From Richelia sp. CSU_2_1 (GTDB lineage Bacteria; Cyanobacteriota; Cyanobacteriia; Cyanobacteriales; Microcoleaceae), in assembly GCA_012034575.1 (NCBI GenBank), contig JAAUPF010000142.1:1-18312 (forward strand): DNA of 18,312 nt, in the 5' to 3' direction. The position numbers and the translations under genes were made by a program. Of this stretch, positions 1 through 18,312 are shown in pieces; within the stretch, counting starts at the first letter, position 1; the number at the start of each line of letters is the position of its first letter. The notes below the pieces were generated by a model. That model had not been told where the DNA came from and made no database searches. It worked only from the letters and a program-made list of their open reading frames with translations.

Positions 1-480
1 GCCGAGACCTATACCAGCAGTTGGGCAAAGAAACTGATGTTGCCAACCTGTGGGGCTGGATATCGAATTGTTATCGAGATTGGGGCAAGTATCAGCAAGC
101 TTTGGAAGCAGAACAGCAGGATTTAGCAATTCGTCAACGGCTGGATGACCAGTCTGAGATTGCACATTCCTATTATCAATTTGGACGAATCTATCAAGCA
201 TGGAACAAATATGCAGAGGCGATCTCCCATCACGAACAAAGCCGAGACCTCTATCAGCAGTTGGGCAAAGAAACTGATGTTGCCGATCTGTGGTACTGGA
301 TATCCGATTGTTATCGAGATTGGGGTAAGTATCAGCAAGCTTTGGAGGCAGAACAACAGGATTTAGCGATTCTTCAACGACTGGATGACCAACTCAATAT
401 TGCCAATGCCTATCGGAAGCTAGGCAATATTTATGACGCATGGGAAAATTACGAGACAGCCATTCAATACTACCAGCAAA
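1..480 (+). repeat. Near-identical 240-bp tandem duplication inside the TPR gene (1-240 vs 241-480). A degenerate third copy starts at 481.
   Basis: The nucleotide strings gccgagacct(a/c)tatcagcagttgggcaaagaaactgatgttgcc...atcagcaagctttgga(a/g)gcagaaca(g/a)caggatttagc recur at 1 and 241, encoding the same 80-aa block. Confidence 0.9.
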
Positions 481-5244: not shown

Positions 5245-5829
5245 TTACGTTTCTGTTTCTGTTTCAAATTGAACGCCTTCATACAAAAGTTCGATCGGCA
5301 ATTCAAATTCAACACTTGATAAAGTTATAATGTCTCCCGCAGCGTAAGGATAGTACAGCCACATTCTACCTTCTCCCCGACAGTAACGTTCAACAGATAC
5401 TTTTTCAGAATCAATCAAGATATACTCTTGCAAACTCGTAATTTTCAGGTAAGCAGCGAATTTTTCATCTCTATCTTTTCCGCTGGTACTGGGGGAAAGA
5501 ACTTCCGCAATTAGTTTAGGATTCTGAATGAATTTGCGGGAATTGAGGTCTTGAGGATCGCAACTAACTGTGACATCGGGATAGTAGTAACAGCTTTGAG
5601 AACTGATTTGCAATTTCACATCTAATACGTTAATTCTACAGCCTCTGGAACGCAGATGCGGGTACAAGACAGTGTAACAATTAAGTGCAATATCGTTATG
5701 AGGAATTGTATTCTCCATCCTGGCAAAAACTTCGCCGTTGACATATTCGTGACGCATCTCTTGTTGGGCTTCCCATTCGAGATATTCTTCAACGGTCATT
5801 TTTTGGGGTGTTTGGGAAATAGCTATCAT
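5245..5829 (-). CDS. Uma2-family (DUF820) putative restriction endonuclease-like protein.
   Basis: The conserved N-terminal region MTVEEYLEWEAQQEMRHEYVNGEVFAM is typical of the Uma2 family, which is abundant in cyanobacteria. The start is taken as ATG 5829 (MIAIS...). The ORF stays open up to 5898, and ATG 5799 (MTVEEY) is an alternative start. Confidence 0.7.
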   Translation of the reverse strand: MIAISQTPQKMTVEEYLEWEAQQEMRHEYVNGEVFARMENTIPHNDIALNCYTVLYPHLRSRGCRINVLDVKLQISSQSCYYYPDVTVSCDPQDLNSRKFIQNPKLIAEVLSPSTSGKDRDEKFAAYLKITSLQEYILIDSEKVSVERYCRGEGRMWLYYPYAAGDIITLSSVEFELPIELLYEGVQFETETET

Positions 5830-5897
5830 AATAAAATTGCTTTCAATGTTATTTGGATTGTAGCATAATTGGCAGGTCGATCGCACCCACAAAACCA

Positions 5898-6746
5898 TTA
5901 AAAATCCCCTTCATCTACTTGAAAAACAGTCAATCCCAAAGATCGCCACCTATCAACAACTTGCTGGCGATCGTCCAACACAAATTTAATGTTATATTTT
6001 CCATCAATATGCTGTCGGTAGAACTCCTCTTTAATAATTGAATCTTTCCGCATATCTCCGGTTTTCCGCATATAAAGCGCGGCATAATTCACCTCATATT
6101 GCTCCAACCATTTTACAGTTTGAGGCTGACAGTCATCCGTCCTTCCCGAGACTACAATAATCTTCACGTCGGTTTGCCACTTGCGGACGGTATCTAAAAC
6201 AGGCTGATTCGGTAAATCGCGATCGCACGTAGTAGCATCGAAAGGATTTCTACCGTTTAGAAGTGCTAAAGTACCGTCCATATCCACAATAATTGCATCG
6301 GGTAAATCCGGGTTGTATTCCGGTGCGGGAACGGGAACGCGCACGTACTGATTGTACATTTTCATTATCACATCTTTGCCCACAGAATTGAGCCTTTTCA
6401 AATCCCGTTTAATACATTCCTCTACCGGAACTTGCAGAAAAGAATCGTTAACTTCAACGATGGCTTTACCTTTAACTAACTCCTTGATATGCTCGATGTG
6501 GGGGCCGAAATTAGTATCGTCAACAATCACGTGCTTGCCACTTTCCAAAGCCATCAAAATAATCGTATCTCTCAACTGCACGATAAACTTTTCATTTGCA
6601 GGCGACCAATGAGAAGCGTGAGCCATTTCTCGCAATAAATCTTTATTTGTACGCACCCATCTTGCAGGTTCAGACAACAGCAATTCTCTCGCAAATTGAG
6701 ACTTTCCAGAAGCAGGCAAACCGACAAGAATCAAAACTCTTTTCAT
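5898..6746 (-). CDS. pnk: Bifunctional polynucleotide 5'-kinase / 3'-phosphatase, phage T4 Pnk-like.
   Basis: The N-terminal P-loop is ILVGLPASGKS (T4 GCPGSGKS). The C-terminal HAD/DxDGT acyl-phosphatase motif is AIIVDMDGTLA (T4 VIFDVDGTLA). The proteins are collinear to the C-terminus (IIVVSGR...DMRKDSIIKEEFY...DDRQQVVDRWRSLG...VDEGDF vs T4 ...DTRKDDVVKEEIF...DDRTQVVEMWRRIG...ASGDF). Confidence 0.9.
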   Translation of the reverse strand: MKRVLILVGLPASGKSQFARELLLSEPARWVRTNKDLLREMAHASHWSPANEKFIVQLRDTIILMALESGKHVIVDDTNFGPHIEHIKELVKGKAIVEVNDSFLQVPVEECIKRDLKRLNSVGKDVIMKMYNQYVRVPVPAPEYNPDLPDAIIVDMDGTLALLNGRNPFDATTCDRDLPNQPVLDTVRKWQTDVKIIVVSGRTDDCQPQTVKWLEQYEVNYAALYMRKTGDMRKDSIIKEEFYRQHIDGKYNIKFVLDDRQQVVDRWRSLGLTVFQVDEGDF

Positions 6747-6803
6747 GGTAATTGGTAATTGGTAATGGGGAATTGGGAATTAGGAATTGGGAATTGGGAA
6801 TTG
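6747..6803. repeat. Heptanucleotide tandem array (GGTAATT in three copies, then GGGAATT/AGGAATT in five copies) immediately abutting the pnk start codon.
   Basis: The sequence reads ggtaattggtaattggtaatggggaattgggaattaggaattgggaattgggaattg. It starts one base after the CAT (ATG on the minus strand) at 6744-6746. Confidence 0.9.
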
Positions 6804-6824
6804 TAAAACACCAAAGTAGATGCT

Positions 6825-6955
6825 GTAGGTTGGGTTGAGCGAAGGCGAAACCTAACAGCTTATTTTAGGCGAAACCAACAGCTTATTTTCAATAAAGAAT
6901 TGGGAAAGAGTTGGGCGGAGTGAAACGGAGGGTTCGCGGGTTCAACCCAACCTAC
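6825..6955. repeat. 14-bp perfect inverted repeat (gtaggttgggttga / tcaacccaacctac) enclosing a 23/24-bp tandem direct repeat (ggcgaaacc(t)aacagcttatttt, twice).
   Basis: Read directly. The arms are at 6825-6838 and 6942-6955, and the direct repeats at 6844-6867 and 6868-6890. It lies between rnl and pnk. Confidence 0.8.
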
Positions 6956-6969
6956 ATAACTACATATTT

Positions 6970-8055
6970 CTACAAACCTAAATTGATGTAATCCAAACCC
7001 AATAACTCCTCTATTTTATGAATCGTAACATCGCGCAAAGCTTCTTTCACGCCCGCAACTCTGCGAGCCCGCAAAGAAAACAAAATTCCCGAATAAGGCA
7101 AATGTTTGATAGCTAAAGCAAAGTCTTTCTGCACGGCAATATGTTCGTGCTGTCGGTAAACTTCCTCAATTTCTTCAACTAAACGTTGATATTTGTCTTT
7201 AACTTTTTGATAAAGTTCAGTCCATTCAGGAAAATAAGCTAAAAATTCTTCTCCTTCATTAGTCAAAACAATTTCTATCATTCGGCGCGTAGAAAACCCT
7301 TCCCGAAGGTGAGAAATCGCGACATATTGGGGAGACTTAACCTTAACTCTGTTGAAGTTAGCATCGCAAATAATATACCCTTCTGAATCCATCGGATCTA
7401 AATGTTGGGCCGCTTCGATAACTTCTTTCCAGCTAGTTAAAGGATAGGATGCTACCAATTCCCAGCCGTATTTATCAGCCCAAAAACTCGGATCGCTTTC
7501 CCGCAGTGTTTGAATATTGCGAACCCCGTGCAAGGCAATTCGATTGTTAGCTTGCTGGACGACTATTCTATTGTAAGGCGTCATCAATTCAAATATGAAA
7601 CACTCGTCAGTAGCTGACGGCAATTGATATCCCAATTCTTGCCAAACTTTCCAAAACAGTTCGGCAAAATTAAAGCCAAAACCGTTAACTTCGCCCGCTG
7701 CATCGGGAGTGCCGCTCGTTTGGACTCTCCATTCTCCTTTGTAAAAATAGAGTACAGTCAAAGAACCATCTAATTTTTCATAAACTTTGGCAGTTTTCCA
7801 ATCAATTGCAGCGGCGTGGCCTTCCCCGTAATTAAAAAATTTGTCGTAGGGATAAGAAACAATCTGCCAATCTTGAGACTCATCTAAAATAATGCCCCGA
7901 CACTGCTGCACTATTTTTTCGCCCAGCGGGGATTCTATCTGCGAGTATTTCAGACAAGCTAACTCGGGATATTGGCGGTGGCGGGTAACTTTGATCTGAT
8001 AAGTCGCGCACAAAGTTTCCAATCCGTGCTGGCGTAAATACTCTTGCAGTTCCAC
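6970..8055 (-). CDS. rnl: ATP-dependent RNA ligase, phage T4 Rnl1 family.
   Basis: The nucleotidyltransferase motif I is YEKLDGSL with Lys94 (T4 Rnl1 TKEDGSL, Lys99). Flanking blocks also match T4 Rnl1: QCRGIIL (ECRGIMF), DKFFNYGE (EKFFNLNE), IFELMTPYNRIVV (NFEFVAPTNRIV) and EGYIICD...VKVKS..YV..H (EGYVAVM...FKIKSDWYVSLH). The start is GTG at 8055, preceded by AGGAG with a 6-nt spacer. Confidence 0.85.
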   Translation of the reverse strand: MELQEYLRQHGLETLCATYQIKVTRHRQYPELACLKYSQIESPLGEKIVQQCRGIILDESQDWQIVSYPYDKFFNYGEGHAAAIDWKTAKVYEKLDGSLTVLYFYKGEWRVQTSGTPDAAGEVNGFGFNFAELFWKVWQELGYQLPSATDECFIFELMTPYNRIVVQQANNRIALHGVRNIQTLRESDPSFWADKYGWELVASYPLTSWKEVIEAAQHLDPMDSEGYIICDANFNRVKVKSPQYVAISHLREGFSTRRMIEIVLTNEGEEFLAYFPEWTELYQKVKDKYQRLVEEIEEVYRQHEHIAVQKDFALAIKHLPYSGILFSLRARRVAGVKEALRDVTIHKIEELLGLDYINLGL

Positions 8056-8246
8056 GATCGACTCCTAAATTTGTCGCCTGATATATCTTATATGATAATG
8101 CCTGTTTTTGGCAATTAGTCAATAAAATTTAACCCGATTTTTTTCCTGAATGCCTGCTGTCAATTTGGTAGTTAGGAGTACGATCGTACATAAGTAAATT
8201 CAGTCCTGAGAAAAATAGGGCTGTTGCAATATCGAGGAACAAGACA

Positions 8247-8819
8247 GTGACGAACAGATTCTTTCTTTTGGCAACTTCTGCTTGTATATTGACTGCATTA
8301 ATGCCTGCAACGCAAGTTTTTGGAGCGCGTGAAGTGTCGCCGCAATTGGCGCTGCAAGTGCCGGAACCGCAACAAATTGCTCGCACGGATACTGCGGTGC
8401 CTGTCAGAGACATTTTGGCAAAATTAAAAGGTAAAACGCAAGTACCAATTTTGATTCCTAACAGGATTCCTGTCTCCCAAAAACTTTACTATCAAACTCA
8501 AGCCAATGCAGACAGCTATACTATTTCTCTGGAGTTTACACCAGATTGCCGGGGTACGGGAGCTTGCACGCTTGGAGAATTTCGAGCGCAAAAAGGCGGC
8601 GAGTTTTCTACAAGAATAGAACGAGTAACCAAGACTTTAAAAAACGTGCAACTGGCGGGCGGAGTTAAAGGAGTTTTTCACAACGGTTGCGGGGCTTATT
8701 GCACGGCAAATCTGGAATGGAAAAATAAAGGTTTTATGTATACTGTAGCGATTAGAAACGGCCGGGAGGCAGATCTAATTAAAATTGCAAATTCTGCAAT
8801 TCAAGCTGGAATTAGATAA
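8247..8819 (+). CDS. Secreted hypothetical protein with a conserved Cys-containing C-terminal domain (paralog of 9193..10194).
   Basis: The start is GTG with GAGGAA 7 nt upstream. The N-terminal signal peptide is MTNRFFLLATSACILTALMPATQVFGA. The C-terminal approximately 130 aa align with the next gene: KGKT.VP...P.R, AGG.KG.FHNGCGAYC, IANSAI..G.R. Confidence 0.6.
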   Translation: MTNRFFLLATSACILTALMPATQVFGAREVSPQLALQVPEPQQIARTDTAVPVRDILAKLKGKTQVPILIPNRIPVSQKLYYQTQANADSYTISLEFTPDCRGTGACTLGEFRAQKGGEFSTRIERVTKTLKNVQLAGGVKGVFHNGCGAYCTANLEWKNKGFMYTVAIRNGREADLIKIANSAIQAGIR

Positions 8820-9192: not shown

Positions 9193-10194
9193 ATGAGAAA
9201 AAAATGGCTGTTTGGGGCATTTTTTTTGGGTGCAGTCACTGCTTTTACGATCGCACCTGCAACATCAAACTCAGCCCTAGCAAGGACGCAAGTCTCGATC
9301 GCAGAAATTCGCTGGTTGAATTATCCTACCCGAGATAATTGGCAATCGATCGAACTGATTGTACCCGATCGCGACAATACGAAAAAAGTCGATCGACTTA
9401 AGTTATCTTTGTACGACTTTCATGTTGCTAAGATGTTTGAGATTTCTCATTTTTTGTGCCAGCGCGATCGCACAGTTGTCGGATACAATTGGTCTTATCA
9501 ATTAGCAAATGGCAATATTGAAATCGGACGCTACAAAATTAGCTGCACCCTCGCCCGCCAAACAGCCGCAACTTACGGATTGGGGAAACCAGAAACAACG
9601 ACCATCCGTCGCAATTTCCAACTCCCAAATAACCGCCAATCTGTGGCTGTGGAAAAATATTTAATTCCTACTTTCAATATCGTTAAAAACAGATTTTCAG
9701 AGTGGCGGAAGTTTGCCAAACAATTACGGCCGATCGAAAATTCAGGCACGCAAAAAGCTAACAGTTCTTTTCCGGCAAATAACATATTTAAGCAAATTAA
9801 AGGCAAAACGCGAGTGCCTGTATTTCTGCCCAGCAGGCTGTTTTTACCTGCCACTCAGCAACTCGAATTTGACGTGCAAGCAGGCTCCCACGGTTACATC
9901 GTGAGAATGTATTTAGGTAAAGGATGCCGCACGAGAACTTGCTATTTCGGGACGATCGAAGCTATCAGAAGCGAACCCTTTTCACCGCCTTCTAATTTGC
10001 CGCGCGATACTTACAGGAGTATAGAATTAGCAGGGGGAATGAAAGCGATGTATTTTAATAAATGCGGTGCTTACTGCAATGCGTTTGTTGAGTGGCAAAG
10101 GTTGGGCGTACTGTATCGAGTAAGCAGGAAAAATGGCACGCAGCAAGAAGTCGTACAAATAGCAAATTCCGCAATTCGATCGGGACAACGATAA
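9193..10194 (+). CDS. Secreted hypothetical protein. It carries an N-terminal extra domain and the same C-terminal Cys-containing domain as 8247..8819.
   Basis: The start is ATG with GGGAGA upstream. The signal peptide is MRKKWLFGAFFLGAVTAFTIAPATS. The C-terminal block FKQIKGKTRVPVFLPSR...AGGMKAMYFNKCGAYCNAFVEW...IANSAIRSGQR parallels the upstream gene. Confidence 0.6.
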   Translation: MRKKWLFGAFFLGAVTAFTIAPATSNSALARTQVSIAEIRWLNYPTRDNWQSIELIVPDRDNTKKVDRLKLSLYDFHVAKMFEISHFLCQRDRTVVGYNWSYQLANGNIEIGRYKISCTLARQTAATYGLGKPETTTIRRNFQLPNNRQSVAVEKYLIPTFNIVKNRFSEWRKFAKQLRPIENSGTQKANSSFPANNIFKQIKGKTRVPVFLPSRLFLPATQQLEFDVQAGSHGYIVRMYLGKGCRTRTCYFGTIEAIRSEPFSPPSNLPRDTYRSIELAGGMKAMYFNKCGAYCNAFVEWQRLGVLYRVSRKNGTQQEVVQIANSAIRSGQR

Positions 10195-10361: not shown

Positions 10362-10799
10362 TTATTCTGGACAAACAGAATGGTCGCGATCGAACCAAAC
10401 GATGTAGTAAACAGATTGAACGCGAAACCCAAATATCCGTTTTTTCTCATCAATTCGCATCTCTGATAATCTTTCATCTTCAGGAATATTGTCAGGCAAA
10501 GTCGGATGGGTGTCAATTAACTTATAACCCGTTCCTACTGATTCATCTCGTTTTTTTGAGCCATGACCTTTGATTTGAGCCCAAGTATATTTTTCAATTT
10601 TCTTCAGTCCTGCAATTAGGTCATTGATTTCTGATGCTGTCCAATCGGACAGCAGCCAACGATTTTTATCTGCATAGGTAAATCGGAAGCTAGGATGCTC
10701 GTTATCTGTACTGCTTGGTTGGCTTAACAGGGTTGCTGCTTCTGGAATTTTTCTTTGTTGTTTTTGAGGTGGTTTTGGTATTTGATTCTTTTTTCCCAC
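10362..10799 (-). CDS. Small protein translationally abutting the Panacea gene. It is a putative toxin partner with a RelE/ParE-like C-terminal signature.
   Basis: The GTG start lies directly after the TAA of the upstream gene (TAAGTG). The C-terminus SEMRIDEKKRIFGFRVQSVYYIVWFDRDH resembles the RelE/ParE pattern (R.D...R.i..v....v.il.i.H). No other family was recognised. Confidence 0.4.
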   Translation of the reverse strand: MGKKNQIPKPPQKQQRKIPEAATLLSQPSSTDNEHPSFRFTYADKNRWLLSDWTASEINDLIAGLKKIEKYTWAQIKGHGSKKRDESVGTGYKLIDTHPTLPDNIPEDERLSEMRIDEKKRIFGFRVQSVYYIVWFDRDHSVCPE

Positions 10800-11255
10800 T
10801 TATGCCTCTACCAAAGATGAATAGCAGTCTTTCATATCATCGTGAGAGATGATGTTAGTTGATGTTTCCGCAGGTTCTAATCCCTTGCGAGCGTTTAACC
10901 AAGGCATCTCTGAGTGCGTTAGTTCTGCCAAATGTTTAGCACTTAATTCTCCATAAGCATTCCAAACTTCTTCGAGAACTTCGAGTTCATCTTCCTCAAA
11001 TTCTCCATCAAAGTTATCGGGAACGGGAATATCGCTATATTTGTAAGCTTTGTATTCATTCCAAACATCGCGGACAACAGGGCCGGAAACCCAAGCTTCA
11101 ACATCTTGAAAAAATAGCGGCTGGCTTCTAAAAACTAAACTCCAAGCTTGAGCGTAATACACGAGCTTTTGCAATTTGAGCAGAGAAATAGTATCGCCTG
11201 ATTCTCGATCGACCCGACATAAAAAGTAACGAGCTACATCCAGAGCACTTTTCAT
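10800..11255 (-). CDS. Panacea-domain (DUF4065, SocA/PanA-like) putative antitoxin.
   Basis: The core is ALDVARYFL....ISLLKLQKLVYYAQAWSLVF..QPLFFQDVEAWVSGPVV.DVW, which matches the DUF4065 consensus (KLqKLlYyaqgw ... eAW.yGPV). The ATG at 11255 is preferred. The ORF stays open to a TTG at 11282. Confidence 0.6.
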   Translation of the reverse strand: MKSALDVARYFLCRVDRESGDTISLLKLQKLVYYAQAWSLVFRSQPLFFQDVEAWVSGPVVRDVWNEYKAYKYSDIPVPDNFDGEFEEDELEVLEEVWNAYGELSAKHLAELTHSEMPWLNARKGLEPAETSTNIISHDDMKDCYSSLVEA

Positions 11256-11385
11256 AATTTGAGAATTTGAGTAATTTGACAAATTTACTTGTAATTATAA
11301 GATATTTGCTGGTTTAAAAAGATTTTGGATTGTGGATTTAAGATGTGAGATTTTTTTTGAGTTAGAACTTATATATGGGGACGGT

Positions 11386-14225: not shown

Positions 14226-16709
14226 ATGAATACCAGCGAACTAAAACGCGATAACAAAGGTGAAACTTTGGGAATTTCTAGCGGCATTATTCGCCTGAAG
14301 CCGCAGCAATACATTCATGTCATCGATAACAACACGGGCATTACCAGGCTAGAAGTCGGCCCGCAAACAATCACTTTGCGCGACCACGAACGGCTGATTT
14401 TAAGACCGGAACCGATGCTAATCGTGCCGCCGCGCTACTATTGCATTGTTGCTAATCCCGTCCTCCGTGATGCAGAAAATCAACCGATTGCTGACCCTCA
14501 CGGACAAATTAAATTGCGCTACGGCGATGCAGAAGTTCGCTTTGCTCAAGAACCTTTTGCCCTGTATCCGGGAGAAGAATTAGAGCAGGATGTGACTCGC
14601 TTGCAGGTTGTCGAAACCAATCAAGCATTGCGCCTCCGAGCACTGCGAGATTTTGCAGATACTCCTCCCATGCGGGGCAGCCACGGGGGGATTGCCCCTA
14701 CAGCAACGGCAGGAGAAAGTGAATCTGAAGGTCAAACAATTAATCGTTTGGCTGGGGATGAATGGCTGTTTGAAGGGCCGGGAACTTATTTGCCGCGCGT
14801 GGAAGTTGAAGTTGTAGAAACGGTGAAATCTGTAGTAATTAAACCGAATCAAGCTTTGCGCTTAATCGCCCGACAATCTTGTACTGACAGGCAAGGAAAC
14901 CGCCGCCGCGCTGGTGAAGAATGGTTGGTGAGGGATGAAGGTGCTTATTTGCCGGGAGTTGATGAAGCTGTTGTCAACATTATTAATGCTTGTGTTTTAA
15001 CGGAACGGAAAGCCCTGCATTTGAAGGCTAAACGCACTTTTACTGATGTTTTCGGGCGGCAGAGAAAAGCGGGCGATGAATGGTTGGTGACGTTTGAAGA
15101 TGCAGAAATTCACATTCCCGACGTGTACGAAGAAGTAGTAGGAGAAGTAGAAATTGCTACTTTGGGCGATCGTCAATGGTGTATTGTTCTCGATCCAATT
15201 GATGCGGATGGTAAGCCTCAATTGGGACTGAAAGAAGTCCGCCAGGGTCGAGCTTCTTTTTTCCTGCATCCGGGAGAATCTTTGGAAGGCGGGATTCAAA
15301 CAGTTTACGTTCTCAGCGAACAAGAAGCACTGTTATTGAGAGCGAAAGAAGCTTTTAATGAGGGAGAAAGCGACAATCTAGTTTCCCACCAACCGGGGGA
15401 TTTATGGATGATTTCCGGACCGCGCGATTACATTCCCCGCGTCGAAGTAGAAGTTGTGGAAAAGCGAAAAGCGATTCCTCTGGATAAGAATGAAGGCATT
15501 TACGTGCGCGATATCCAAACAGGAGAACTCCGATTAGTGGGCGGGCCGCAAGCATATATGCTGAGTCCTTACGAGGAACTTTGGGAAAAAGAATTGCCGC
15601 CAGTTGTTGAAGAATTGCTAGCACAAAAAAGCGATCCGATTTCCGATCGCGGAATGCAGCAATTGCGCGGTGTTGCCCACTCGGAAATGCAGGTTTTGCG
15701 GGATAAAACCAGGGCAGTTGTGTTCCACGTTCCCCAAAATTCCGCAGTGCAAATTCACGATTACAAAAATCGCACTGCCCGCACTGTATTCGGGCCGGAT
15801 TTGGTGATGTTGGGGCCGGATGAAGCGTTTACAGTTCTCAGTTTGTCTGGCGGCAAACCGAAAAAGCCGAATGCGATTAAATCTTTAGCTTTGTTGCTGG
15901 GTCCAGATTTTATGACTGATGTTTTTACTGTAGAAACATCGGATCACGCTCGCTTGCAAATTCAGCTATCTTATAACTGGTATTTCGATCTCGTGCGGCA
16001 CGACGAACAAGCGGCGGCAAAACTGTTTCAAGTTCCCGATTTTGTAGGAGATGCTTGCAAGGCAATTGCCTCTCGGGTTCGCGGTGCAGTTGCGGGAGAA
16101 AAGTTTGATGAATTCCACCGCAATTCGGCACGAATTATCCGCCATGCTGTATTTGGCGTCAGCGAAGACGGTCGGATCGGAGATGAATTTCGGTTTAAAA
16201 CTAACAGTTTGGTCATTACTAATATTGACATTCAATCAGTCGAACCGATCGATGAAGCAACGTTAAAAAGTTTGCAAAAATCGGTACAAATTGCAATTCA
16301 AATTACCACTGACGCTCAAGAAGCTGCTGCGAAGCACGATGCAGCCCGCATCGAACAAGAGGCAAAAGCTAGATTGGAAAGACAGGCAATTGTAGATAAG
16401 GGTGCGGCGGAATCCGAACGCAAAAATCTGTTAGAATTGCAGGCAGAAAATATTGCGATCGAATCTACCGGGCACGCGACAGCCGAAGCGAGGGCGAAAG
16501 CAGAAGCAGCGCGAATTCAAGGCGAATTAGCAGTGAATTTGGCACAGCAGGAAGCGGAAGCAGCCAGAATTCGCGCCGAGGGAGAATTGGCGCAAATGAG
16601 GGCCAGACAGGAAGCAGAATTAGCCCACCAACAAGCCCTAAGCACTCTAGAAATTGAGAAAGCCCAGCGAATGGCGGAAATTACCAGTGCGGAATTCCGG
16701 GAAAAGTAG
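14226..16709 (+). CDS. mvp: Major vault protein (MVP) homolog, full set of domains (MVP repeats, shoulder, cap-helix).
   Basis: It is collinear with metazoan MVP from the N-terminus: QQYIHVIDNNTGITRLEVGPQT...VPPRYYCIVANPV (human [25 protein letters not shown]...VPPRHYCTVANPV). Near-exact blocks include AGDEWLFEGPGTYLPR, NEGIYV, TVLSLS, LLGPDF and VPDFVGDACKAIASRVRGAVA. The Ala/Glu-rich C-terminal coiled coil (AKHDAARIEQEAKARLERQ ... ESTGHATAEARAKAEAARIQGE ...) matches the cap-helix. Confidence 0.95.
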   Translation: MNTSELKRDNKGETLGISSGIIRLKPQQYIHVIDNNTGITRLEVGPQTITLRDHERLILRPEPMLIVPPRYYCIVANPVLRDAENQPIADPHGQIKLRYGDAEVRFAQEPFALYPGEELEQDVTRLQVVETNQALRLRALRDFADTPPMRGSHGGIAPTATAGESESEGQTINRLAGDEWLFEGPGTYLPRVEVEVVETVKSVVIKPNQALRLIARQSCTDRQGNRRRAGEEWLVRDEGAYLPGVDEAVVNIINACVLTERKALHLKAKRTFTDVFGRQRKAGDEWLVTFEDAEIHIPDVYEEVVGEVEIATLGDRQWCIVLDPIDADGKPQLGLKEVRQGRASFFLHPGESLEGGIQTVYVLSEQEALLLRAKEAFNEGESDNLVSHQPGDLWMISGPRDYIPRVEVEVVEKRKAIPLDKNEGIYVRDIQTGELRLVGGPQAYMLSPYEELWEKELPPVVEELLAQKSDPISDRGMQQLRGVAHSEMQVLRDKTRAVVFHVPQNSAVQIHDYKNRTARTVFGPDLVMLGPDEAFTVLSLSGGKPKKPNAIKSLALLLGPDFMTDVFTVETSDHARLQIQLSYNWYFDLVRHDEQAAAKLFQVPDFVGDACKAIASRVRGAVAGEKFDEFHRNSARIIRHAVFGVSEDGRIGDEFRFKTNSLVITNIDIQSVEPIDEATLKSLQKSVQIAIQITTDAQEAAAKHDAARIEQEAKARLERQAIVDKGAAESERKNLLELQAENIAIESTGHATAEARAKAEAARIQGELAVNLAQQEAEAARIRAEGELAQMRARQEAELAHQQALSTLEIEKAQRMAEITSAEFREK

Positions 16710-17004: not shown

Positions 17005-17612
17005 ATGAAACCAGTAAATCGAGACATTGAAAAGCATCTGATGCTCGCAGCCAAGAGCTTTCCAGCAACGGTTGTCACCGGCCCACGAAGATCAGGGAAG
17101 ACTTACTTATTGAAGCGTCTGCTCCCTGCGGCGGAGTATTATCTGTTTGAAGACCCAGACATCATCTCGCGTTTCAGGCAGGACCCACAGGGCTTTCTGG
17201 ATGGAGTGAAACCGCCGGTGATTCTGGATGAGATTCAAAACTTGCCGGAAGTGTTTAACTACGTCCGCAGTCGCATTGATGCGCACCCGCGCAAGATGGG
17301 GCAGTGGTTCCTCACGGGCTCACAGGAAGCCGGGTTGATGCGGAATGTGACGGAGTCCATGGCTGGTCGAGCCGCGGTGCTGCAACTCCGCCCGCTCTCA
17401 ACGCGGGAAAGCCCCAAAGTGAATCTGTTCCGGGGGGCTATCCCGAGGTTGTGGCGCGGCCAGGTGCGCGCGGCAATGGTTCAATGCATACGTGCAGACC
17501 TATCTCGAGCGGGACGTGCGGCAGGTGACGGCCGTGCGAGACCTCGCGACGTTTCGGCGGTTCCTGGCCTTGACCGCGGCGCAGACGGGGCAATTGCTCA
17601 ACAAGACGACGA
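17005..17612 (+). pseudogene. AAA-ATPase of the AAA_14/DUF4143 family. It is disrupted by at least two frameshifts and C-terminally truncated.
   Basis: In frame 1 the sequence GPRRSGKTYLLKRL...VILDEIQNLPEVFNYVRSRIDA...WFLTGSQEAGL...LQLRPLS is present. The family motif GGYPEV then appears in a second frame (17304 ORF). The motif YLERDVRQV..RDLATFRRFLALTAAQTGQLLNKTTIA appears in a third frame (17492 ORF). Nothing family-like follows about 17612. It is GC-rich. Confidence 0.55.
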
Positions 17613-17829
17613 TCGCCGCGGGAACCATGTGTTCAGGCAGAGTCTGCCGCAGGTGCGACCGGCGGGATAGAGTTGAAAAAACCGGCGGAACCAGTGGTCG
17701 CAGTTGGGCCGGTGGTGCACGGGCCGCAGCGGATCGAGCACGGCCACTGCGCCGAACTTAGCCGCCTCCGAAGCACCGTAGGCTCGCTGCTCCACCGCAC
17801 CGCCGTAGGCGGCAAATGTGTTGAGTTTC

Positions 17830-18258
17830 GTGGCATGTTGGTATTCTACTGGAACAATCCACCATCACCTGTTTCAGGCAGTCCGACAAGTGAATGGTTC
17901 AACTTTGTGGGCAAACCTACATTTGTTGTTCTGGTTATCATTATTTCCCTTTGTCACCGCATGGATGGGTAAAAATCACTTTGCTGCGTTGCCTGTGGCG
18001 CTTTATGGTGTGGTTCTATTATTGGCTGCGATCGCCTACTTCACTCTGACCCGCACACTTATTTTTTACCACGGTCAAGATTCCACACTTGCAAACGCTC
18101 TTGGTCGGAATTTTAAAGGCAAGTTATCGGTATTGATTTATGCAGTTACAATTCCACTTGCTTTTGCAATCCCTGGGCTTGCATGTGCATTATACGTTCT
18201 GGTTGCAGTTCTGTGGCTCATTCCCGATCGTCGTATTGAAAAGGCGTTGAACTCATAA
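17830..18258 (+). pseudogene. DUF1211 (TMEM175-like K+ channel family) membrane protein gene, missing its N-terminal part and carrying a frameshift near its 5' end.
   Basis: The family block is (F)YWNN | HHHLFQAVRQVNGSTLWANLHLLFWLSLFPFVTAWMGKNHFAALPVALYGVVLLLAAIAYF...ALGRNFKGKLSVLIYAVTIPLAFAIPGLACALYVLVAVLWLIPDRRIEKAL. The YWNN part is in the frame of the 17673 ORF, and HHHLF onward is in the frame of the 17818 ORF. The expected approximately 50-aa N-terminal TM segment is absent. It contains a HIP1 octamer (gcgatcgc near 18028). Confidence 0.55.
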
Positions 18259-18312
18259 AGTTCCATGTTCGATGCAACAAAAACCAGCTAACAAGCCCTC
18301 TGCACCAGAACG

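Follow-up and report, generated by a model that had tools for sequence, protein, structure and literature searches.

A T4-type RNA ligase and polynucleotide kinase-phosphatase encoded as a conserved chromosomal gene pair in Microcoleus-type cyanobacteria

Results

The rnl and pnk genes

Two consecutive minus-strand ORFs of the DNA analysed (18,312 nucleotides, the 18.3-kb window in what follows) encode an Rnl1-type RNA ligase (Rnl) and a T4-type polynucleotide kinase-phosphatase (Pnk). Their coordinates, given in Table 1 with those of the other features, agree exactly with the preliminary description of this DNA, which had assigned the genes to the same two families, and the matches obtained in Pfam, PDB and PHROG are far beyond chance. 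The motifs quoted there are likewise all present in the translations, namely V91-YEKLDGSL, including Lys94, in Rnl, and G9-LPASGKS-16, V154-DMDGT-159 and a C-terminal GDF in Pnk.

Table 1. Features of the rnl-pnk locus (positions in the window, or residues where so stated).
Feature	Position	Strand	Description
rnl	6970..8055	(-)	Rnl1-family ATP-dependent RNA ligase, 361 aa, GTG start
pnk	5898..6746	(-)	T4-type polynucleotide kinase-phosphatase, 282 aa, ATG start
Pnk 5'-OH kinase domain	residues 1-~140		P-loop; AAA_33, 3e-12
Pnk 2',3'/3'-phosphatase domain	residues ~149-282		DxDxT HAD; HAD_PNKP, 1.7e-51
Intergenic spacer	6747..6969	(-)	223 bp, repeat-filled, between rnl and pnk
Heptamer repeats	about 6746-6815	coding strand	AATTCCC/AATTACC type
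MITE-like hairpin	arms 6824-6838 and 6942-6956		15-nt perfect arms, inside the spacer
Putative rnl promoter and short 5' leader	8056..8125	(-)	consensus scan
Putative -35-like hexamers of rnl	8109-8114 and 8117-8122	(-)	TTGCCA and TTGACT
Putative -10-like box of rnl	8085-8090	(-)	TAAGAT
Shine-Dalgarno sequence of rnl	8062-8066	(-)	AGGAG
Uma2 gene	5245..5898		after pnk; Pfam, 4.4e-34

Rnl matched Pfam RNA_lig_T4_1 (PF09511) over the whole profile (positions 1-227 of 227) at 67.5 bits (cut-off 28.3; E 2e-18), and PHROG 562 (RNA ligase) over profile positions 24-360 of 377 (3e-44). In the PDB search, T4 Rnl1 was matched at 1.9e-7, or at 2.5e-16 when a family profile was used. Both HMM and fold searches placed the protein with T4 Rnl1 and not with the DNA ligases or capping enzymes, thus removing a doubt that the preliminary description had raised about the family. 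Identity to T4 Rnl1 is 25%, and the score for the T4 RnlA equivalog model (NCBIfam TIGR02308) is 52 bits, below the cut-off of 242.25; judged by its sequence, Rnl is a member of a subfamily distinct from the T4 RnlA equivalogs. In RefSeq it already carries the name 'T4 RnlA family RNA ligase'. The subfamily of Rnl is large (9458 cluster representatives at 50% identity, E<=0.001), and its eukaryotic members carry fused TUTase or primase modules.

What defines each clade of RNA ligases is the set of domains attached to the nucleotidyltransferase (NTase) core (PMC6379707). The AlphaFold model of Rnl matches T4 Rnl1 across 329 residues, and the matched region includes a C-terminal helical domain, so that the all-helical domain that defines the Rnl1 type is predicted to be present. 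The final ~85 residues are shorter than the C-domain of T4 Rnl1 and showed no detectable profile-profile similarity to it; their equivalence is drawn from the predicted model and from the PHROG profile.

The nucleotidyltransferase residues K94-x-D96-G97, E156, E225-G226 and K238-x-K240 of Rnl correspond to K99/D101/G102, E159, E227/G228 and K240/K242 of T4 Rnl1, Lys94 being the predicted site of adenylylation. All 25 cyanobacterial sequences and all 27 diverse members of the subfamily that were compared have these residues of motifs I, III, IV and V unchanged, and alignment with T4 Rnl1 showed that R53, K72 and F73/F74, for whose T4 counterparts roles have been described (PMC6379707), are conserved as well. 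In all, 12 of the 13 mapped T4 catalytic residues are retained, the exception being the motif Ia residue Lys119. Mutagenesis in T4 has shown this lysine to be essential. Its position is occupied in Rnl by Ser114, with serine in 25/25 cyanobacterial sequences and Ser, Thr, Arg or Asn across the wider subfamily. By analogy with its family, Rnl may catalyse the ATP-dependent sealing of 3'-OH/5'-PO4 RNA with the preference for breaks in tRNA anticodon loops that is an Rnl1-family trait.

Pnk matched PHROG 505 (polynucleotide kinase) at 3e-84. As the preliminary description had stated, it is collinear with T4 Pnk down to the last residues (1-282 versus 1-301; PDB 1ltq, 4e-41), the two proteins being 38% identical; residues 3-282 are also collinear with residues 12-312 of Pnkp1 (PDB 4xrp, 1.2e-52). 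Every catalytic residue that could be mapped from T4 Pnk is kept and is invariant in the alignment: K15, S16, D36, R39 and R118 in the kinase domain (T4 Lys15, Ser16, Asp35, Arg38 and Arg126), and D155, D157, S200, K239 and D259 in the phosphatase domain (T4 Asp165, Asp167, Ser211, Lys258 and Asp278). The roles of these residues in the T4 enzyme are established (PMC3592404), and Pnk would by analogy possess 5'-kinase and 2',3'-cyclic/3'-phosphatase activities on RNA.

Linkage, spacer and promoter

The operon linkage of the two genes is almost general, pnk lying directly downstream of rnl in 75 of the 77 informative cyanobacterial genome loci; in the two exceptions (L071 and L080) the ligase has no adjoining Pnk. 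The distance between them varies, being only 5-7 bp in the distantly related Synechococcales and Gomphosphaeria, but 82-389 bp, with variable content, in Microcoleaceae (median 170 across 75 loci overall). The spacer of the present locus has a predicted RNA fold of -45.9 kcal/mol (z = -6.9), and its hairpin was considered as a conserved regulatory element. This was rejected: the hairpin arm was found in only 2 of 75 other loci, and in distant clades the gap is reduced to a few base pairs. For the same reasons the spacer is a secondary insertion that was absent from the ancestral operon. In Microcoleaceae, co-transcription of rnl and pnk across the repeat-filled spacer is putative.

Upstream of rnl, the consensus scan gave a promoter score not above shuffle expectation, while the -10-like box and the Shine-Dalgarno sequence are kept in the aligned upstream regions of Microcoleus and Kamptonema; these data point, tentatively, to the promoter listed in Table 1. 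Neither a regulatory palindrome nor an Rfam element was seen upstream of rnl in the upstream alignment and in the Rfam search.

Chromosomal setting

The host is a filamentous cyanobacterium of the Microcoleus type, and the pair belongs stably to its chromosome and is well conserved there. In Microcoleus, Tychonema, Lyngbya and Kamptonema the flanks are alike, with hemC on one side of rnl-pnk and genes for a pyridine-nucleotide oxidoreductase, a VTT protein and an isochorismatase-like protein on the other, and the pair was found at this same site in all the Microcoleaceae loci recovered. Each of the 80 genome loci has both genes intact, with dN/dS of 0.08-0.13 (0.08-0.10 for Pnk alone); both dN/dS and dS are indistinguishable from those of the nearby hemC and oxidoreductase genes, and with a GC content of 0.41-0.43 the pair does not differ from its flanks. 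Searches with Pfam and PHROG revealed no phage structural, integrase or lysis genes in the 18.3-kb window. The cellular location proposed in the preliminary description is therefore confirmed, and the conserved chromosomal position across related genomes shows that the locus is not a prophage. Its alternative suggestion of a remnant of phage cargo does not agree with the occupation of the same site across genera, the low dN/dS and the flank-like GC.

More widely, 169 species matches were obtained among 185,579 GTDB species genomes. Within the cyanobacteria the distribution is patchy, with clade-specific patterns, and the pair is known from many genera. What had been described as an unusual module is thus indeed a cellular Rnl1 plus Pnk, but a less unusual one than described, considering its occurrence in many cyanobacterial genera, the RefSeq name of its ligase and the precedent of the bacterial Pnkp1-Rnl-Hen1 system (PMC4411300).

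The Uma2 gene reported next to the pair is present, but is no partner of it, as it is only variably present among close relatives. A toxin-antitoxin pair near rnl-pnk is also variably present, and both look incidental. No defence-system model matched Rnl or Pnk when PADLOC was run over the window, where its matches were the incidental Uma2 (PDC-S03), a MAG6450/NsnC-like protein and an AAA_14 ATPase (PDC-S01). Clustering of the ORFs of 13 divergent cyanobacterial loci yielded no third partner, only Rnl and Pnk recurring beyond local synteny; elsewhere the genes next to the pair are unrelated and of housekeeping type (glycosyltransferase, GDP-mannose dehydratase, methyltransferases, DnaK, Mfd, MEKHLA). 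No ribonuclease, Hen1 or regulator is conserved beside the pair in the cyanobacterial loci compared, neither the window nor the related loci yielded a PrrC/RloC-like gene, and no tRNA or ncRNA linked to the pair was detected in the whole window by Rfam (gathering thresholds) or ARAGORN.

Phage relatives

Phage records matched both proteins abundantly (1320 for Rnl and 3286 for Pnk), with best identities to cultured phages of 37% and 44%, respectively. The closest non-cyanobacterial relatives of the ligase, 45-56% identical over the full length, lie in phage-like contigs (IMG/VR and metagenomes; uncultivated or jumbo phages), in arrays of small phage ORFs with Rnl2, HD, cREC, HNH and HAD_SAK genes. 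Several of them have a Pnk (AAA_33 + HAD_PNKP) 0-1.3 kb downstream of the ligase. Among 80 viral loci, however, a T4-type Pnk was located within 8 kb of the ligase (<=8 kb) in only 10, and was directly adjacent in only two. An NJ tree unites the cyanobacterial sequences in a single clade, which is nested within the phage-like relatives. Because the nearest outside relatives are found in phage-like contigs, sequence comparison suggests that the pair derives from a healing-and-sealing cassette that was captured from a phage long ago and later became fixed.

Discussion

Pnk and Rnl1 of phage T4 are the textbook case of a virus mending RNA that its host has cut on purpose. The T4 enzymes, encoded by pseT and rnlA (gp63), resemble the cyanobacterial pair in enzyme family, in the domain order of Pnk, in the overall fold of the ligase and in the catalytic residues, save the motif Ia lysine missing from the cyanobacterial ligase. 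The gene order is also alike, the ligase gene lying upstream of the kinase gene on one strand (rnlA-alc-pseT.3-pseT.2-pseT.1-pseT in T4). In contrast, the cyanobacterial genes are directly adjacent, chromosomal and vertically inherited, and differ from the T4 anti-PrrC system in being neither phage-encoded nor set in the context of a PrrC-type nuclease; the ligases of uncultivated phages, in spite of being the nearest non-cyanobacterial sequences, are distinguished by their phage ORF arrays.

It appears quite probable that rnl-pnk forms a self-contained operon for RNA healing and sealing, encoded by the host and descended from phage genes, which became fixed in a cyanobacterial lineage and is maintained under purifying selection. 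[quoted passage not shown] The phosphatase of Pnk, with Asp155 as nucleophile and Asp157 as acid-base, would open and remove the cyclic phosphate, yielding a 3'-OH/2'-OH end; the P-loop kinase (Lys15, Asp36, Arg118) would phosphorylate the 5'-OH; and the ligase, self-adenylylated on Lys94, would transfer AMP onto the 5'-phosphate and then seal the break. The fungal ligase Trl1 (Rnl6 clade) has a different C-terminal module, carries kinase and CPD domains in fusion, and requires a 2'-PO4 end (PMC6379707), whereas the phosphatase of the cyanobacterial Pnk should leave a 2'-OH. We infer that the RNA target may be damaged by the cell's own toxins, by those of competitors or by phage-triggered nucleases, and that the pair may have a protective role against toxin RNases.

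That the pair is instead inert phage cargo, i.e. a prophage remnant or recent insertion with no function for the host, is highly improbable. Both protein families are dominated by phages (PHROG 562 and 505, with the thousands of phage records mentioned above) and the nearest outgroups are phage-like contigs, but the pair is intact in 80/80 loci at one chromosomal position across several genera, evolves under the same constraint as the neighbouring housekeeping genes, with equal dS, and has the GC of its flanks in a window devoid of integrase, structural and lysis genes, while even the best cultured-phage relatives are distant. The cargo explanation can be regarded as already largely refuted. 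A three-component complex, in which a Hen1 encoded elsewhere would activate the ligase and 2'-O-methylate the junction against recutting, is suggested by the best solved-structure match of Pnk, which is Capnocytophaga Pnkp1 and not T4 Pnk. Moreover, the reconstituted bacterial Pnkp1-Rnl-Hen1 system likewise has a chromosomal T4-like Pnk beside a stand-alone RNA ligase, and in Capnocytophaga pnkp1 and rnl adjoin with hen1 far off (PMC4411300). Yet the combination of a Pnkp-C-type ligase with Hen1 that characterizes that system is not present at the locus, and we consider such a complex quite unlikely.

T4 Pnk is also active on DNA ends in vitro, and Pnk might accordingly act as a DNA 3'-phosphatase/5'-kinase, or the pair might serve programmed processing of RNA, such as the joining of purposely cut RNAs or circularization, rather than the repair of damage. 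The housekeeping-like conservation, the constitutive-looking promoter and the lack of a linked toxin or regulator would be compatible with a routine task, as would the fusion of eukaryotic subfamily ligases to TUTase or primase modules. Against an essential step, however, speaks the patchy spread in cyanobacteria; the relatives of known biology (T4, Trl1) all join RNA ends made by nucleases, and in the window the pair has no linked tRNA or ncRNA gene. Such roles are thus improbable, and repair of broken RNA is the preferred function.

A more specific form of the repair function, which we put forward tentatively and regard as possible rather than probable, is that a phage counter-defence cassette captured by cyanobacteria became a standing immunity or recovery function, reversing the cleavage of tRNA or other RNA by the abundant RNases of the cell itself (of toxin-antitoxin, HEPN or abortive-infection type) or by tRNase toxins of competitors. 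If this were true, filaments could leave toxin-induced dormancy, and the pair would be a host-side mirror of the T4-PrrC arms race, played through a divergent Rnl1 subfamily lacking the motif Ia lysine.

It should be noted that, while the identification of the genes is right, the pair is already recognized by annotation pipelines and is common in cyanobacteria, and nothing in it points to a novel type of mechanism. Within the literature accessible to the searches, no study of an Rnl1/Pnk pair in cyanobacteria or Microcoleus was found, and no biochemical or genetic work on the cyanobacterial ligase clade. The fixation of a T4-type repair kit under strong purifying selection in cells means that hosts, too, keep this chemistry. 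The large Rnl1-like subfamily, distant from the laboratory T4 enzyme, could supply RNA ligases with other properties, and the pair is a natural system for asking which RNA damage free-living cyanobacteria suffer, be it from toxin-antitoxin RNases, from competitors' toxins or from stress.

Identity of the two proteins

Two consecutive ORFs on the minus strand, the ligase gene rnl and the kinase-phosphatase gene pnk, had been given in a preliminary description, and their coordinates were matched exactly. All the motifs claimed there were also found, namely YEKLDGSL with Lys94, GLPASGKS, VDMDGT and the terminal GDF. The identity, fold and active-site conservation of the two proteins are clear from the searches reported here.

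Features of the window
Feature	Position	Strand	Remarks
Uma2 ORF	5245..5898		after pnk
pnk	5898..6746	minus	ATG start, 282 aa
Tandem heptamer repeats and MITE-like element	6746-6956		between rnl and pnk
rnl	6970..8055	minus	GTG start, 361 aa
Paralogue 1	8247-8819	plus	signal-peptide-like N-terminus
Paralogue 2	9193-10194	plus	signal-peptide-like N-terminus
SocA/Panacea-domain antitoxin	10800-11282	minus	pair spans 10362-11282
MAG6450-family/NsnC-like protein	10362-10799	minus	follows the antitoxin
Major Vault Protein homologue, bacterial	14226-16709	plus	full-length, 827 aa
AAA_14 ATPase ORF	17005-17670		PADLOC PDC-S01, 221 aa
Region of climbing GC	17005-18312		from ~0.45 to 0.58 at end

The product of rnl scored 67.5 bits against Pfam RNA_lig_T4_1 (threshold 28.3; E 2e-18) and matched PHROG 562 ('RNA ligase and tail fiber attachment catalyst') with 3e-44 over profile positions 24-360 of 377. 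Its sole significant relative of solved structure by sequence was T4 Rnl1 (RnlA), with 1.9e-7 for the single sequence and 2.5e-16 for a 25-sequence profile. It should be noted that T4 RnlA equivalog status was rejected, because the protein reaches 52 bits against the TIGR02308 (T4 RnlA) cut-off of 242 and is 25% identical to T4 Rnl1; on sequence grounds, it is assigned to a distinct subfamily, apart from the RnlA equivalogs.

For residue mapping, the T4 Rnl1 reference sequence was checked against the T4 genome and the T4 rnlA-pseT region was retrieved. T4 residues R54, K75, F76/77, K99, D101, G102, E159, E227, G228, K240, K242 and Y246 correspond to R53, K72, F73/74, K94, D96, G97, E156, E225, G226, K238, K240 and Y244 respectively, and these 12 counterparts are all invariant within the cyanobacterial clade. 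The single mapped exception is Lys119 of motif Ia, an essential residue of T4 Rnl1, whose counterpart in the rnl product is Ser114; 25 of 25 cyanobacterial sequences have Ser at this position. The profile-profile alignment to T4 Rnl1 ends at residue 277. RNA ligase clades are told apart by which domain is attached to the nucleotidyltransferase core (PMC6379707); since about 90 extra C-terminal residues align in a predicted structural model, the protein would belong to the Rnl1 clade.

The product of pnk matched Pfam HAD_PNKP (1.7e-51) and AAA_33 (3e-12) and PHROG 505 (3e-84), and it is collinear end to end with both the Capnocytophaga enzyme Pnkp1 (4xrp, 1.2e-52) and T4 Pnk (1ltq, 4e-41). Every catalytic residue described for T4 Pnkp (kinase K15, D35, R126; phosphatase D165, D167, S211, K258, D278; PMC3592404) is retained in the mapping, as are S16, R38, R176, R213 and D254 of T4 Pnk. 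The protein is a full-length T4-type kinase-phosphatase.

Distribution, linkage and neighbourhood

The source of the window is a filamentous cyanobacterium of the Microcoleus/Tychonema type. Many ligase orthologues already bear the NCBI label 'T4 RnlA family RNA ligase'. Dozens of Microcoleus genomes encode one with 87-93% identity; the Kamptonema orthologue shows 82%, and those of Gomphosphaeria, Spirulina, Waterburya, Geminocystis and Synechococcales MAGs show 60-72%. In one locus labelled as an Actinomycetota MAG (L068, JBLNEP010000118.1), hemC, rnl, pnk and the oxidoreductase gene stand in the cyanobacterial order, with 75-87% identity; the contig is almost certainly cyanobacterial and was assigned to the actinobacterial MAG by a binning error.

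When all window proteins were mapped onto 80 genome loci, the linkage of the two genes was evident: pnk lies directly downstream of rnl in 75 of the 77 loci with a continuing contig. The downstream sequence available for L071 (10001-15500, where mfd follows the ligase) and L080 (730-8291) holds no pnk, which in some lineages has been either lost or relocated. The Microcoleaceae share one neighbourhood, with a trypsin-like protease, hemC, two paralogous secreted proteins, rnl and pnk, followed by a pyridine-nucleotide-disulfide oxidoreductase, a VTT/DedA protein and an isochorismatase-like protein; more distant cyanobacterial loci are flanked by unrelated housekeeping genes and have an rnl-pnk gap of 5-7 bp. 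A Uma2 gene does adjoin the pair, as had been claimed. However, because many close relatives lack Uma2, and the SocA/Panacea and MAG6450 genes are variably present, both are incidental neighbours. ORF clustering across 13 divergent cyanobacterial loci revealed no conserved third partner.

In the window, rnl and pnk are separated by 223 bp. Besides the heptamer repeats, this spacer holds a MITE-like element whose 15-nt terminal inverted repeats (TGTAGGTTGGGTTGA) are perfect and form a hairpin with 15-bp arms; the predicted RNA fold has an energy of -45.9 kcal/mol (z = -6.9). Because spacers vary among Microcoleaceae in length (82-389 bp) and content, and the hairpin arm recurs in just two of 75 other loci (L070 and L076, again in the spacer), the hairpin is a repeat inserted at strain level. 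Co-transcription of rnl and pnk in Microcoleus appears plausible. The region upstream of rnl has a conserved Shine-Dalgarno sequence and a conserved -10-like box; neither a regulatory palindrome nor an Rfam element is present there.

Several other features of the window deserve mention. The two paralogues share a Cys-containing C-terminal domain and had no matches in Pfam, NCBIfam or PHROG; in Microcoleaceae, as in several more remote loci (L065, L068, L070-L072), a homologue lies next to rnl in divergent orientation. The SocA/Panacea and MAG6450/NsnC-like genes, which occupy their site in some Microcoleus loci only, look like a toxin-antitoxin pair. The gene for the vault protein (Pfam Vault 2.7e-65, MVP_shoulder 8e-52, Vault_2/3/4) lies some 6 kb away from rnl and pnk, and Microcoleus L001 has a syntenic counterpart with 85% identity; vault-like proteins are rare in bacteria. 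The AAA_14 ORF, in the region of climbing GC, is short for its ~400-aa profile and ends in an unusual tail rich in Arg and Ala; the gene may thus be frameshifted or truncated, or foreign DNA may join the sequence here.

Chromosomal residence and origin

The pair could be read as a decaying remnant of phage cargo, or as a resident of the chromosome. Nei-Gojobori dN/dS was computed against six relatives; in the four closest comparisons rnl gave 0.09-0.13 and pnk 0.08-0.10, the same as the neighbouring hemC (0.08) and oxidoreductase (0.12-0.13) genes, and dS was alike for the pair and its neighbours (0.46-0.67). These values led us to reject the remnant: the pair is under strong purifying selection and has diverged together with the chromosome. 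Its GC content equals that of the flanks, and the reported lack of phage structural genes nearby holds across the window, where lysis and integration genes are absent too.

A phage ancestry is a different matter. An exhaustive HMMER search with the ligase returned 9458 cluster representatives at E<=0.001; for 1855 of them the E-value was 1e-30 or lower. Identity reached 37% (Rnl) and 44% (Pnk) in cultured phages and up to 54% in uncultivated viral contigs. The nearest non-cyanobacterial relatives that were inspected (52-56% identity) all lie within phage-like arrays of small co-directional ORFs that also hold Rnl2, HD, cREC, HNH or HAD_SAK genes; in two arrays, Pnk is located ~1 kb downstream of the ligase. 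Among 80 viral loci, a T4-type Pnk lies within 8 kb in 10 and is adjacent in only two. A rough NJ tree, which carries no support values, groups the cyanobacterial ligases in a single clade inside the viral radiation and gives T4 a long branch. The simplest reading, we infer, is that a phage rnl...pnk cassette was captured once, long ago, that the small ORFs between the genes were then lost, and that the pair would thereafter have been inherited vertically.

The homologues include some unusual architectures. In metagenome proteins P0132 and P0199, and in L145 (6621-6911 and 8001-8777), the ligase is split right after motif I by a ~360-aa insertion carrying a LAGLIDADG endonuclease and an intein splicing domain, a sign that Rnl1-like ligases of phages contain inteins. 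Eukaryotic fusion proteins of Pyxidicula operculata (Amoebozoa; P0218, P0232) have close ligase domains (46-48% identical): one joins a P-loop kinase, a dual-specificity phosphatase, an AEP primase and then Rnl1, another Rnl1 and then TUTase/PAP. In metagenomic P0140, Rnl1 is fused to a C-terminal kinase without phosphatase.

Relation to known RNA repair systems

No experimental study of the cyanobacterial pair was found in the literature search. Identity with Pnkp1-Rnl-Hen1 (PMC4411300) was rejected because the ligase type differs and Hen1 is not linked to the pair; Pnkp-Hen1 and RtcAB were rejected as well. The T4 Pnk/Rnl1 pathway has the same component families and a similar predicted action, but the cyanobacterial pair is host-encoded, fixed and arranged in a compact operon, and its ligase, of a divergent subfamily, lacks the motif Ia lysine.

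The activity, substrate and biological trigger of the pair are inferred, the activity by homology. Pnk would convert 2',3'-cyclic-phosphate/5'-OH ends into 3'-OH/5'-PO4 ends, which the ligase would then seal via Lys94-AMP and AppRNA intermediates. Because the C-domain of T4 Rnl1 confers its tRNA specificity (PMC6379707), by analogy the substrate of the cyanobacterial pair may be tRNA anticodon loops.
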